Of a DNA stretch of 64,000 nucleotides, positions 7,779 to 11,729 are shown piece by piece. Under the pieces are notes generated by a model, which worked only from the letters and a program-made list of their open reading frames with translations, searched no databases and was not told where the DNA came from. The translations under genes and the position numbers were made by a program. The stretch lies in NCBI GenBank assembly GCA_965207935.1, contig CBDBNM010000002.1:185055-249054 (forward strand), in the 5' to 3' direction. Each line of letters begins with the position of its first letter. The stretch's first letter is position 1. Source of the stretch: Dehalococcoidia bacterium (lineage in GTDB: Bacteria > Chloroflexota > Dehalococcoidia > Lucifugimonadales > JAGWBF01).

Positions 7779-8579
7779 GTGACCAAAGCTATGCAATTAT
7801 CCCGACTTTCCATCCTGGCGGCGTCCCTCGCTCTCTTGCTTGTGCTGTGGGGGTGCGGAAGTTCGGGGGATGCTGAAATGCAACCTACCCCCACTATGGA
7901 AGAACCGGCGACCGTACCAGCCGCAACCCTCATCCCCACCCAGGATACAAATGTCGAGTTGCAGCCGACAGCCACCCTAGCTGAACCTCCCACCGTGCCG
8001 GCGGTAACCCCTATCCCCACCCCGGAACCCACGGACATAGGCGAGGCTACGGAAAAGTACGAAGGTGTCACCTACGTCGTATCCGACGGCACTGAAGCCA
8101 CTTTCACCGTCGAGGAGCAGCTGGTGAGGCTGCCCCTGCCCAACGATGCTGTGATGCGCACAACAGAGCTCTCGGGAGAGGTCCACCTGGACGGCAGGCC
8201 ATCGGTGGTCAGAATCGACCTCCAGACCCTGGAAAGCGACCAAGCTTTCAGGGACCGCTACGTGAGGACCAGGATGTTCGGAGAGCATCCCACAGGAATC
8301 TTCACCGTGCCGGATATCGGACCAATTCCTGAGGGCTTGGCCTCCGGCGAAGAGGTCATGACCTCGGTGTCCGGCTCCCTGGAAATGCGCGGGGAAACCT
8401 TCCCCTTGGAGTTCGAAATCGAAGCCAGGGACGACGGTGAGGTGCTGTACGTCCTGGGCCGCACCACCTTCACATGGGACCAGCTGAACATACCCCGTCC
8501 CACAGCCCCCCCGGTAGCCAGCATAGAAGACGATGTGCGCGTGGAAATACTCCTGGCCCTGACACCCGAGGAGAGCTAG
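7779..8579 (+). CDS. YceI family lipoprotein
   Basis: AGGAG then GTG 7779 (or ATG 7791); lipobox LWGC; Pro/Thr linker; ATFTVEEQL, LESDQAFRDRYV, GSLEMRGET. Confidence 0.8.
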   Translation: MTKAMQLSRLSILAASLALLLVLWGCGSSGDAEMQPTPTMEEPATVPAATLIPTQDTNVELQPTATLAEPPTVPAVTPIPTPEPTDIGEATEKYEGVTYVVSDGTEATFTVEEQLVRLPLPNDAVMRTTELSGEVHLDGRPSVVRIDLQTLESDQAFRDRYVRTRMFGEHPTGIFTVPDIGPIPEGLASGEEVMTSVSGSLEMRGETFPLEFEIEARDDGEVLYVLGRTTFTWDQLNIPRPTAPPVASIEDDVRVEILLALTPEES

Positions 8580-8723
8580 CCACCGGGAACCGCCCGCCCA
8601 TTCCCAGGCCGGGCGCCGGACAGCCCCAGGTCGTTTGATTACATCGGGCAACCCGTGCTACCATCCCCCAGATGCACCCGCGTCAATCCCCCTTCGAAAA
8701 ACGCCGGTAGACAGGAGCCCGAT

Positions 8724-8948
8724 ATGCAGCTCCCCATCGTATATACACTCATCAACTGAGGGGCCAGCGACAAGCTGCGCGAGTCGTGGACTAGCCAGGG
8801 AATAGCCTTCGAAGAGCGAAGGGTGGACCAGAGCCAGGAATGGCTGGATGAGCTGCTCAACTACTCGGATGCGTCTCCTACTGTAATCTACCCCGACGGA
8901 CGAGTTGAGATCGGATTTGAAGGTCACGTCGGCTGAGCTCTGGCCTAG
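8724..8948 (+). CDS. Glutaredoxin/NrdH-like putative selenoprotein with two in-frame TGA codons (not in ORF track)
   Basis: AGGAG then ATG 8724: MQLPIVYTLIN-U-GASDKLRESWTSQGIAFEERRVDQSQEWLDELLNYSDASPTVIYPDGRVEIGFEGHVG-U-ALA-TAG; TGA at 8757 and 8934; glutaredoxin-like pattern throughout. Confidence 0.75.
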
Positions 8949-8964
8949 GTCGGCGGCGCCGACC
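8948..8964 (+). promoter_or_regulatory. Candidate bacterial SECIS hairpin for TGA 8934
   Basis: GGTCGGC-GGC-GCCGACC: perfect 7-bp stem with G-first loop starting 18 nt after the TGA; no U-tract follows. Confidence 0.55.
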
Positions 8965-9010
8965 CCACGACGTGACCAACCCCCCAGACCCCAGCACCCA
9001 AGGAGGAAGC

Positions 9011-9604
9011 ATGACCAGCGAGACCAGCGTAGTAACCCCCGAAAGGTTTTCCCAGGGTTTCAGCTACCCTGACTATATCGCCCAGATCAACATCAACAAG
9101 AACTGGTTTGAGAAGCTCTACGACTCATTCCAGGTGGAATCCGATGACGCCGAGTTCTTTAAGGAGGCAGTCAGCCTTCCCAACGGCCCAGCCAAGATGA
9201 TGGTCATCGGGGAAGACTGGTGCCCGGATGTTTACCGCGGAATGCCCGTCATGGCCCGCATTGCCGAGGCGGCGGGGATGGAGATGCGGGTGTTCCCCCG
9301 GGACGCCAACATGGACATCATGAACGAGTTCCTGAAGGAAGGTAAGTGGGCCTCGATCCCGGCGGTGGTGTTCTACTCGGCCTCCCACGAGTATTTGTGC
9401 CATTGGATAGAACGGCCGGCCCTGGCCGAGCAAGAGATGGAGTCCATATCCGCCCAGGTCAAGAGCGAGATGCCCAACGCATCGGAGCAGGAGATTCGGG
9501 CGGCGGCCAGGCCGCGAAACCAGGAGCGCTTCCCCGCTTGGCAGCAGGAATCGGTCAAGGAGATACGCAAGCTCCTGACCGAATCACTCAACATCCAGGG
9601 CTAG
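9011..9604 (+). CDS. Thioredoxin-fold protein (Thioredoxin_9-like), monothiol WCPDV
   Basis: AGGAGG then ATG 9011; VIGEDWCPDV, RVFPRD, SIP, WIERP. Confidence 0.85.
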   Translation: MTSETSVVTPERFSQGFSYPDYIAQININKNWFEKLYDSFQVESDDAEFFKEAVSLPNGPAKMMVIGEDWCPDVYRGMPVMARIAEAAGMEMRVFPRDANMDIMNEFLKEGKWASIPAVVFYSASHEYLCHWIERPALAEQEMESISAQVKSEMPNASEQEIRAAARPRNQERFPAWQQESVKEIRKLLTESLNIQG

Positions 9605-9626: not shown

Positions 9627-11729
9627 TTAAGAAGGCCCACCGCTGGAGTACTCGTTCACGGAGATGCTCCCGCCTTCCCAGATCGATAGATGATAGGGGG
9701 CTTCCTGCAAGGTGTCGGGCGACAGGGCGGCCACGATCACGTACACCTTTTCTAAGCCCCGGGTTGCTGGAACTACGATCTGCCCTGCGTTGTCCGAGTT
9801 GAGCCTAAGCTCCCGCACCACGTTGGAGTTCCCCTCCTCGACAACCTGCACGATGTACTCCTGGGGGGCCCGGTTGTCTATCCGGCGAAACCCCTGAGGG
9901 ACCCATGTGCCGTCGAAGCTCGCATCAGGGTCGATGCCGATCTCCGGCACGGCGATGTGGTCGAGGCAGATGCCCGTCTCGTGCAAGGCATCGTCGGTCA
10001 CATAGTGGAATCGGACCAACACCTCCTGGCCCGCGTACTCCGCCAAGCTGGTTTCGTACACCTCCCATCCATCGCTGGAGCCTGTGTAACCCGGCCCGAA
10101 GCTGACGCCCAGGGAGTCTTCGTCAGTGGTGCCCTCAGCATTCAGGATGTCCCAGGTGGAACCGCCATCCACCGACACCTCCACATAGGCGTAGTCCCAG
10201 CCCTCCTCGATTTCGTACCACAGGCGGTAGCTGAGGGTGGCATCATCCACCTGGGTCAGGTCCAGCCCCCGGGTAAGAGTGGTGCTGATGGAATCTCCCC
10301 GGTTGCCCCACCAGCAGTGGCCCTCGACCAGGTCCAACGGGATGATCGGCGTGTGGGACCGTCCCTGGAACTGGATGATCAGCCCTTCATCCACATCGTC
10401 GATGGCGTAGTACCTGGCAGAGTACTGGGGAATAGAAGAGCTGACGCCGTCGTTGGAGCCCAGCTCTTCTACATCACGGACCCTTATCTCAGCATCAGGG
10501 TAGCTGTAGGCTCCGTCATCCGGTTCATCAAGCAGGTTGGCCACAGTCCAGTCCGCAAACACATCCCTGAAGGTGCGCCCCGCACCTACCTCATCGAGAT
10601 AGGACTCGACGCCCGCAACCCCGTCCAGAGGATTCTGCACCAGCCTGAGAGGGGAACCAAATCGCTCGTACAGGTATCGAAAGAACAGGTAGTCGCCTCC
10701 GTAGTGGGCTGGCCCGGGATCGGAGGGCCAGTTGACCAGGGAGGTGGTCGGATTTCTCAGAAAGGCGTTTACGCTAATGGGGTCGTATCCGGCCTTGTGA
10801 GACGCCAGCTCCGAAAGCCCTTCCCCAACCCATGCATCCTCCGTCGGGTCTGAGTTCCAGTGGACCAGGTGCTGAAGCTCGTGGGCCAGGACCGAGAGGT
10901 ACAATGACGTCCCAACGAACCTCTCGTTGCCATCCATGTATATCATCTCCCTCTCGTTGCTGAACGGGAATGCTGCAGCCGGGTGCTCATCCATGGAACT
11001 GAAGTACCCCGCCAGGCCGCTCAACCTGACGTGCAAGATGGCGATCCTGGGGTCACCATCTATTCCAGGCGACCACTCACCGCCGAAATCGGAGGTCACT
11101 CGGGGGTATATCTCCTCTTCGAACACCTCGGCCACCCTTTCCAGGTCTTCATCGGAGATGCCGACGCCATCTTCCACGTACCAGTAAGCATGCGGGCTGA
11201 TGACCCTAAGGGTGGCGGGGACGGAGTGAATCCTCACCCTCGACAGGTCGAGGGCAAAGAACTCTTCAGTGTCTCCCGTCGTCCTGGGCACGCCGAACTC
11301 TGAAGCTACATGAGGTATGGGGTCATGCTGCTTGAGAATGAGAGAGCGGCCCAGCTCCAACAGGTCCCGGTCCGGCGGGGCCTCGTACTGAGCGCTTTCG
11401 TTGACGTGCGGCGTTGCGTTGGGCGATGAAGCCGTCGGCTGGACAATGCTGTCTTGTTCAGATCCCGTGGGGCTGGGTGGGCTTGTCGGTGTGTCGACAG
11501 ACTCCCCATCTCCGGGCATCTCTGCAGTCGGCTCAAGGCCCGACGTGGGTGTATCCGTGCCAGGGTCCGTTGCAGGCGTGGTATCGACAGCTGCAGGACT
11601 GGGGGAAGGCGTTACCTCACCTGTAGCAGGGCCTTCTCCCCCATCGGACCTGCAAGCGAGGAGGGCGGACAGAACTGCTACCAGGACAATGAGGCAGGCA
11701 GCTTTGCCAACCAAGCCTTTACTGCTCAT
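9627..11729 (-). CDS. Secreted zinc metalloprotease lipoprotein, immune inhibitor A/M6-like
   Basis: Lipobox LLAC, Pro/Thr linker, LAHELQHL, W.GEGLSE, WYEIEEGWDYAYVEVS, FHYVTD. Confidence 0.8.
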   Translation of the reverse strand: MSSKGLVGKAACLIVLVAVLSALLACRSDGGEGPATGEVTPSPSPAAVDTTPATDPGTDTPTSGLEPTAEMPGDGESVDTPTSPPSPTGSEQDSIVQPTASSPNATPHVNESAQYEAPPDRDLLELGRSLILKQHDPIPHVASEFGVPRTTGDTEEFFALDLSRVRIHSVPATLRVISPHAYWYVEDGVGISDEDLERVAEVFEEEIYPRVTSDFGGEWSPGIDGDPRIAILHVRLSGLAGYFSSMDEHPAAAFPFSNEREMIYMDGNERFVGTSLYLSVLAHELQHLVHWNSDPTEDAWVGEGLSELASHKAGYDPISVNAFLRNPTTSLVNWPSDPGPAHYGGDYLFFRYLYERFGSPLRLVQNPLDGVAGVESYLDEVGAGRTFRDVFADWTVANLLDEPDDGAYSYPDAEIRVRDVEELGSNDGVSSSIPQYSARYYAIDDVDEGLIIQFQGRSHTPIIPLDLVEGHCWWGNRGDSISTTLTRGLDLTQVDDATLSYRLWYEIEEGWDYAYVEVSVDGGSTWDILNAEGTTDEDSLGVSFGPGYTGSSDGWEVYETSLAEYAGQEVLVRFHYVTDDALHETGICLDHIAVPEIGIDPDASFDGTWVPQGFRRIDNRAPQEYIVQVVEEGNSNVVRELRLNSDNAGQIVVPATRGLEKVYVIVAALSPDTLQEAPYHLSIWEGGSISVNEYSSGGPS

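Follow-up and report, generated by a model that had tools for sequence, protein, structure and literature searches.

Two in-frame UGA codons in a Cys-free glutaredoxin-like gene: a probable two-selenocysteine protein from a Dehalococcoidia bacterium

The stretch of DNA analysed here (hereafter the window) comprises 64,000 nucleotides of contig CBDBNM010000002.1 from the genome of a Dehalococcoidia bacterium (assembly GCA_965207935.1); at 8724–8948 it holds a short, glutaredoxin-like reading frame that is twice interrupted by TGA. The locus raises the question of whether this frame is a gene and, if so, how its two UGA codons are read and what the product might do. We judge 8724–8948 to be a real gene, not a chance frame, and consider it very probable that the gene specifies a genuine selenoprotein with selenocysteine (Sec; U) at both residue 12 and residue 71. 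The features with which the argument starts are the following.

8713–8717, + strand: Shine-Dalgarno-like AGGAG at a spacing of 6 nt from the ATG, read from the sequence
8724–8948, + strand: predicted gene for the 74-residue glutaredoxin-like selenoprotein, TAG stop included, supported by the frame, Pfam, orthologues and codon analysis
8757–8759, + strand: UGA codon 12, predicted Sec at the first-Cys position of a CxxC motif (here U-G-A-S), supported by a U/C column in homologues
8934–8936, + strand: UGA codon 71, predicted Sec in the tail G-U-A-L-A-stop, supported by a U/C column in homologues

The frame runs from ATG 8724 to TAG 8946–8948, with 74 codons interrupted by TGA 8757–8759 and TGA 8934–8936 only; the AGGAG, the start, the length and the confinement of TGA to codons 12 and 71, all reported in a first-pass annotation made from the letters alone, were verified in the sequence. 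With TGA written as U, the product is MQLPIVYTLINUGASDKLRESWTSQGIAFEERRVDQSQEWLDELLNYSDASPTVIYPDGRVEIGFEGHVGUALA, which contains two U and, as had also been noted, no Cys. Contigs from two other sequencing runs span the gene and have no alternative letter at either TGA, whereas they do differ at 8756, 8761 and 8939. A contig from run X5 (depth 2) lacks one base at 8732, in the C-run of codons 3–4, which would shift the first codons and may be an assembly error. The listing of open reading frames (ORFs) contains no ordinary ORF of at least 40 amino acids across 8724–8948 in the gene's frame, and gene callers would therefore miss the gene.

When TGA is read as Cys, the product matches the Pfam Glutaredoxin family (PF00462) over residues 6–54 with 25.4 bits against a cut-off of 22.9, and the family profile matches both solved glutaredoxins (7c10, E 9e-9) and NrdH proteins. 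The protein is thus predicted to be a small one (about 70 residues) of glutaredoxin/NrdH-like fold. The glutaredoxin-like character originally proposed for the frame holds, with the Pfam score above cut-off and the cis-Pro (P52) invariant, as does the placing of codon 12 at the first Cys of CxxC, where nine homologues have Cys and 44 have U.

Whole-genome searches for homologues were made reading through stops. In the family of the window genome the gene is carried by 24 of 28 genomes, in each case with two TGAs, and the four genomes without a match are 87–92% complete. An even sample of the order yielded a homologue in 149 of 401 genomes (E 1e-8 or better). By hand count, the 150 matches listed for this sample include 51 with two TGAs, 35 with one and 64 with none in the matched range, this last class being a lower bound, as matches that end at residue 70 conceal a TGA at codon 71 (L055 and L056 are classed as having none, yet Sec-71 is present in both). 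Six of 401 genomes in an even sample of the phylum match, the window genome included, and none of the others has two TGAs. Several runs labelled as sponge metagenomes among X6–X17 hold small shares of 8650–9050, with 20 pieces of 85–99% likeness in X8, both TGAs being kept; relatives of the gene may thus occur in sponges.

Fifty-three homologues were read through the stops. TGA is found at both codons in 44, the two TGAs lying at codons 12 and 71 in every one of these 44 sequences, while six combine Cys-12 with Sec-71 and three are all-Cys. Column 12 accordingly holds U 44 times and C nine times, and column 71 U 50 times and C three times; at both sites an in-frame UGA is aligned with Cys at a conserved position. 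Whether homologues carry Cys or TGA at these two codons was the check that the first-pass annotation had proposed, and nothing other than U or C occurs there. The only invariant columns of the alignment are residue 12 (Cys/Sec), Pro52 (the cis-Pro position), Gly59, Gly64 and residue 71 (Cys/Sec). The states seen in the alignment are as follows.

All-Cys state: N-terminal motif CDAC or CGTC; tail GCHIG, GCFIG or GCAII, then stop
One-Sec state: N-terminal motif CPTC, CHAC or CQAC; tail GU or SU plus three residues, then stop
One-Sec state, phylum-level relatives L059 and L061: N-terminal motif CPVC; tail GUEF or GUHI, then stop (two residues after U)
Two-Sec state, Cys-15 kept: N-terminal motif UPTC or UPAC; tail GU plus three residues, then stop
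Two-Sec state, Cys-15 lost: N-terminal motif UPAS, UPTS, UGTS, UGAS, UEAS, UETS, USVS or UPVG; tail GU plus three residues, then stop

Position 15 of the two-Sec forms is Cys, Ser or Gly, with Ser or Gly replacing Cys in most of those read, and residue 71 is always Cys or Sec. The relatives appear to preserve a series that leads from CxxC + C through CxxC + U and UxxC + U to UxxS/G + U. The database homologue P0009, cut off at the position of Sec-71, has Cys-12 together with Ser-15 (CPAS), indicating that loss of the resolving Cys is not limited to two-Sec forms. A tree was computed from the 53 proteins over 71 columns, with masking of residues 12, 15 and 71 and with mostly two-TGA rows picked; its best topology has four Cys-12/Sec changes, and it is so poorly resolved that a single origin of Sec-12 could still be accommodated. 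Database relatives of the gene are cut-down pieces, namely 71-residue 'glutaredoxins' and 43–57-residue 'hypothetical proteins', and 15 of the 16 database homologues read stop at the Gly directly before residue 71.

Codon usage among the 24 family sequences bears on both flanks of the reading frame. Before codon 12, Val6, Thr8 and Leu9 are kept while their third positions vary; codon 12 itself is TGA in 24 of 24; after codon 71, Ala72, Leu73 and Ala74 are kept, again with variable third positions. The frame closes at codon 75 in all 24 sequences, with TAG in 14, TGA in eight and TAA in two. Amino acids retained over variable third positions, together with the fixed end of the frame, are the signature of translation through both UGAs. 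A lack of conservation downstream of codon 12 had been named beforehand as a finding that would speak against the gene; it was looked for, and purifying selection is seen across both UGAs.

The stronger of the two candidate selenocysteine insertion sequence (SECIS) hairpins follows UGA-71.

8948–8964, + strand: SECIS 2, GGUCGGC (8948–8954), loop GGC (8955–8957), GCCGACC (8958–8964), 7 bp, identified by folding and covariation

The first base of this hairpin is the final G of the TAG, and its loop starts 18 nt after UGA-71. Folded alone it reaches −12.6 kcal/mol (z −2.89; of 200 shuffles, one equals it). Across 28 sequences with Sec-71, pairing of the helix amounts to 95.2%, five of its seven pairs have changed on both sides, and none of 500 shuffles attains the covariation score; loops across the relatives are GGC, GUG or GUGA. 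The perfect hairpin with a G-first loop 18 nt after TGA 8934, reported from the window alone, is thereby confirmed at 8948–8964 and covaries. A comparable hairpin was not seen after the stop of the all-Cys homologues, whose 45-nt folds range from −6.4 to −9.3 kcal/mol versus −9.0 to −24.1 kcal/mol in 50 Sec-71 forms, with slight overlap. Neither a U-tract behind SECIS 2 nor a terminator-like site in the interval up to the Thioredoxin_9 gene that comes next was found when looked for. The eight family orthologues which end in TGA at codon 75 (L032, L034–L038, L040 and L041) have this stop directly before the same hairpin and only 12 nt from the Sec-UGA; they are natural cases in which it must be the spacing that tells a UGA for Sec from a UGA for termination. 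Beyond the TGA stop of L035 and L040, no TAA or TAG closes the frame until it has entered the Thioredoxin_9 gene, probably by chance.

8779–8795, + strand: SECIS 1 core, GCGAGUC, loop GUG (8786–8788), GACUAGC, with a G.A mismatch 8781/8793, identified by RNAalifold consensus and covariation

The loop of this hairpin, which lies within the gene, starts 26 nt after UGA-12, and the lower stem can be extended to about 8767–8806. Its helix is 90.9% paired in 25 sequences. A wider set of 33, which includes nine sequences added from three other families and picked for a shared register, and which leaves out 11 Sec-12 sequences with a hairpin 19–25 nt from the UGA (L052, L067, L069–L072, L074, L076 and L078–L080), is 91.8% paired, with four of seven pairs changed on both sides; none of 500 shuffles reaches its score, and slid controls are 26–45% paired. 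The stem GAGUC/GACUC becomes GACGC/GCGUC or GAUGA/GCAUC in relatives. Across the 24 family sequences there is no variation at the third positions of codons 14 and 20–23: all 24 have TCG for Ser21, whereas Ser48 is encoded by TCC in 12, TCG in ten and TCT in two. Constraint of the RNA by the SECIS 1 helix accounts for the invariance at codons 20–23.

Two other folds behind UGA-12 were set aside. The pairing of GCGAC (8767–71) with GTCGT (8783–87), which the first-pass annotation had offered as a weaker hairpin after TGA 8757, does exist in the window, but no pair has changed on both sides in 25 relatives and 500 of 500 shuffles reach its pairing, so that the conserved hairpin is instead the one at 8779–8795 with the GUG loop. 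The minimum-energy hairpin, 8763–8768 with 8774–8780 (loop GACAA, 9 nt after the UGA), lies at a distance which the SECIS model does not allow, and inspection of the alignment by eye shows no conservation of it among relatives. The published bacterial SECIS model specifies a loop of 3–9 nt with G in its initial two nucleotides, a stem of 4–16 bp, a distance of 16–37 nt from the UGA and at most −7.5 kcal/mol. The hairpins at both sites conform to it, site 2 with −12.6 kcal/mol and site 1 with the −9.9 kcal/mol of its extended fold, the core alone giving only −5.4 kcal/mol. An Rfam search over 8500–9100 with E up to 10 returned no family, just three chance-level matches to unrelated RNAs.

The window genome (2.5 Mb, two contigs, 95% complete) has the machinery for Sec insertion. 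A tRNA-Sec is present (Rfam 70.1 bits, gathering score 47; ARAGORN calls a tRNA-SeC with anticodon tca), as are selB (316 bits), selA (543 bits) and selD (377 bits), each above its cut-off; the four genes whose presence had been proposed as a check are thus all found. selA and selB have no internal stops. selD, which lies outside the window (G000:C2:644450-645373), has one in-frame TGA, and the selenophosphate synthetase is probably itself a selenoprotein. TGA serves as an ordinary stop, ending 114 of 420 stop-to-stop frames of at least 1500 nt. Assignment of both UGAs to Sec is consequently supported by the U/C columns, by a covarying hairpin for each UGA, by the Sec machinery and by protein-level selection on both flanks.

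In the mechanism we propose, UGA-12 would be recoded by SelB and Sec-tRNA(Sec) under the guidance of the intragenic hairpin at 8779–8795, and UGA-71 with the aid of the hairpin at 8948–8964, with termination three codons past Sec-71. Sec-12 would take the place of the attacking Cys of a CxxC redoxin. The usual resolving residue, Cys-15, is Ser here, and Sec-71, carried on a short tail that would replace the last glutaredoxin helix, may resolve instead. Since position 15 is variable and residue 71 is always Cys or Sec, the latter is inferred to be the resolving partner, a role in which Sec-71 most likely serves. The redox couple would then be a Sec12–Sec71 diselenide/diselenol in the window protein, a selenenylsulfide in the Cys-12 relatives and a disulfide in the all-Cys forms. 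That residues 12 and 71 do form a redox pair is, on the alignment, a proposition with even odds.

Downstream of the selenoprotein gene lies a second gene of thioredoxin fold.

9011–9604, + strand: Thioredoxin_9 family protein, 197 residues, one-Cys active site W-C-P-D-V, Pfam PF14595 with 95.2 bits

A Thioredoxin_9 gene follows the selenoprotein gene in 28 of 30 loci, made up of 24/24 in the family and four Sec-71 relatives, and it is missing at both all-Cys loci read among the 30. Of the 24 family copies one is truncated where its contig ends, and at four family loci a single gene separates the pair; in these four (L047–L050, one genus of the family) the intervening gene encodes a PEP-mutase/isocitrate-lyase family protein of ~340 residues. 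In 21 Thioredoxin_9 sequences W-C-x-D-V is invariant (W70, C71, D73 and V74), Val replacing the second Cys of the motif. Of the 21, 19 retain C130, the protein's second Cys, for which two more distant sequences have Leu or Gly. No solved structure matching the Thioredoxin_9 protein by sequence was found. With its one-Cys active site, this protein is a plausible partner that would need an external resolving selenol. The two genes are likely co-transcribed; conserved gene order alone suggests that their products are redox partners, a tentative pairing to which we give slightly less than even odds. A Cys-free, selenium-only relay, in which the Sec12–Sec71 diselenide would be the dedicated electron donor/acceptor of the co-transcribed one-Cys Thioredoxin_9 protein, is more doubtful still. 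If true, the pair would constitute a two-gene selenium redox module, specific to one Chloroflexota-like order and missed by current annotation.

As a whole, the explanation set out above, that of a two-Sec glutaredoxin-fold selenoprotein gene with two hairpins, tail-Sec chemistry and a Thioredoxin_9 partner, is assigned a probability of roughly 0.85. Several observations weigh against it. SECIS 1 is weak in the window genome, with a core of −5.4 kcal/mol that includes the G.A mismatch, and the minimum-energy fold of 8757–8800 favours a different hairpin. The 44-nt stretch after UGA-12 and the 37-nt stretch after UGA-71 are no more stably folded than their shuffles (z 0.27 and −0.32, respectively). 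The rows for SECIS 1 covariation were chosen by register, with exclusion of the 11 U12 sequences. Under a permissive search, seven of nine Cys-12 homologues also have a hairpin compatible with the model behind their Cys codon, in six of them at −7.5 kcal/mol or below, so the argument at site 1 rests on covariation and not on the presence of a hairpin. The window protein also scores under every NCBIfam selenoprotein cut-off. The weakness of SECIS 1 lends some support to a protein that starts beyond codon 12, with UGA-12 a true stop or untranslated and only UGA-71 read as Sec, and gene callers do give 43–57-residue products that begin after codon 12 (P0045, P0060–P0070). This is nonetheless very unlikely, given that codons 4–9 (P-I-V-Y-T-L, the first β-strand) are kept as amino acids with varying third positions, that the window has no ATG between codons 12 and 71, that column 12 is Cys in nine homologues with full CxxC motifs, and that the helix after UGA-12 covaries. 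Standard annotation is empty here and lists no ORF of at least 40 amino acids in frame over 8724–8948, as would befit a pseudogene or a chance frame with two plain stops; that reading is barely credible, since 24 of the 28 genomes in the family, as well as other families within the order, retain the two TGAs, and since the frame is under purifying selection and matches the Pfam glutaredoxin model. We give equally little credence to a reading in which, by a changed code or a suppressor, TGA specifies one of the standard amino acids Trp, Gly and Cys. It is formally possible for any in-frame TGA, and no support for it was found here, while TGA ends 114 of the 420 long frames and is the stop of this very gene in eight of 24 orthologues, selA and selB are free of internal TGA, both sites align with Cys and not with Trp or Gly, and the complete Sec machinery and SECIS-like hairpins are present.

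A different alternative accepts both Sec residues and concerns their use: the two selenols might bind a metal or metalloid (e.g. Hg, As or Cu) instead of undergoing redox cycling. The protein has no other thiol and loss of Cys-15 is tolerated, both of which would suit such a role. The genes annotated around it (YceI-like, Thioredoxin_9, InhA-like, Pth and epimerase), however, include no metal-resistance or transport gene, the conserved neighbour is of thioredoxin fold, and the protein's cis-Pro, a typical feature of thioredoxin folds with redox activity, never varies; metal binding is thus improbable, and a redox function of the two Sec residues is preferred.

Among known families the nearest are the Uxx-star glutaredoxin-like selenoproteins, and the likeness to them claimed by the first-pass annotation stands in part. 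NF041212 is the best-scoring family for all 53 homologues, but the window protein reaches only 37.2 bits against its cut-off of 66, and 24.9/72, 33.3/100 and 22.6/97 bits with NF041114, NF041211 and NF047338, respectively; the top homologue has 58.2 bits against the NF041212 cut-off of 66. The tail is U or C plus three residues and a stop in 51 of 53 homologues, with two residues in L059 and L061 only, whereas the Uxx-star tail, in a definition taken here from the family name only, has exactly two residues after Sec/Cys. Nor is the window protein a classical glutaredoxin or NrdH protein, its motif being U-G-A-S and its scores 21.6/90 (GRX_bact), 15.8/85.75 (NrdH) and 23/88.55 (YruB) bits. Scores below cut-off and the three-residue tail point to a sister group of the Uxx-star proteins and not to membership. 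On these sequence comparisons, the gene belongs to a so far unmodelled sister group, one that is widespread in one Chloroflexota-like order. A U-x-x-x-stop subgroup may already be described in Haft and Tolstoy 2025 (mSystems), the reference given for the Uxx-star families.

NF041212 and NF041211 resemble the window group in fold, in the C-terminal Gly-Sec and in having a hairpin behind the stop codon; the window group differs by its U-x-x-x-stop tail, a second Sec at position 12 and a linked Thioredoxin_9 gene. A two-Sec architecture had at first been called unusual, which proves overstated: Table 1 of a 2026 review (PMC13188914) lists UXX-star selenoprotein family 1 ('Distant Grx-like protein 1', NF041114) with motif UxxT and two Sec, and the glutaredoxin-like design with N- plus C-terminal Sec accordingly has a precedent. 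Family 1 resembles the window protein in being small and glutaredoxin-like, with an N-terminal active-site Sec, no resolving Cys and a second Sec near the C-terminus; compared by description only, it differs in having UxxT where the window group has UxxS/C/G, and two residues after the tail Sec against three. No match over the NF041114 cut-off was found in 151 genomes sampled from the window's order, and the two-Sec state here therefore seems to belong to a separate lineage. The window gene thus extends a known, already catalogued theme, with the addition of a conserved one-Cys neighbour of thioredoxin fold.

More distant parallels lie in the chemistry. Classical selenoprotein glutaredoxin and thioredoxin are listed as UxxC in the same table (PMC13188914). 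Like the window protein, these carry Sec in place of the attacking Cys of CxxC in a thioredoxin fold, but they have a single Sec and keep the resolving Cys, whereas the window protein has Ser-15 and a second Sec 59 residues away on its tail. Animal thioredoxin reductase ends in a Gly-Cys-Sec-Gly tail, the flexible-tail Sec of which exchanges with a fixed redox centre and passes electrons to a thioredoxin-fold partner. The principle is alike, although the reductase is an unrelated flavoprotein and its tail pair is Cys-Sec and not a distant Sec-Sec. The eukaryotic, peroxiredoxin-like SelL family also has two Sec in one thioredoxin-fold protein which could form a diselenide; SelL was reportedly described by Shchedrina et al. 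in 2007 as a UxxU selenoprotein with a diselenide bond. Both Sec of SelL lie within one UxxU motif, in contrast to the 59 residues which separate those of the window protein.

Standard annotation does not see the gene, and its score stays below the cut-off of every NCBIfam model, which means that the selenoproteins of this lineage are underestimated in number; the 53 sequences could serve to build a profile with which the family would be recovered. With all-Cys, one-Sec and two-Sec states side by side, the family is also a small natural model in which to ask what advantage Sec has over Cys.

Two further annotated neighbours in the window have no evident link to the selenoprotein.

7788–8576, + strand: candidate YceI-like lipoprotein
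9630–11729, − strand: InhA-like protein with MAM domain, 700 residues

The genes adjoining the all-Cys locus L053, together with the gene inserted in one genus, are of the SDR, M24 peptidase and PEP-mutase/isocitrate-lyase families and give no functional hint. According to the BSepDB paper, Dehalococcoidia genomes are among those with the richest selenoproteomes, which would fit the window genome as one of that class. Elsewhere in the window genome there is a true member of UXX-star family 2 (G000:C2:1433544-1433747; L026:1495-1710), CNYS...GVGUAF-stop, with 123.9 bits against a cut-off of 100 and a hairpin right behind its TAG stop. An 80-residue glutaredoxin/NrdH-like gene on the other contig (G000:C1:785241-785426; L027:1483-1722) has an in-frame TGA in the motif U-G-P-C and scores 73.7 bits with YruB, under the cut-off of 88.55; it is probably a classical UxxC selenoprotein.

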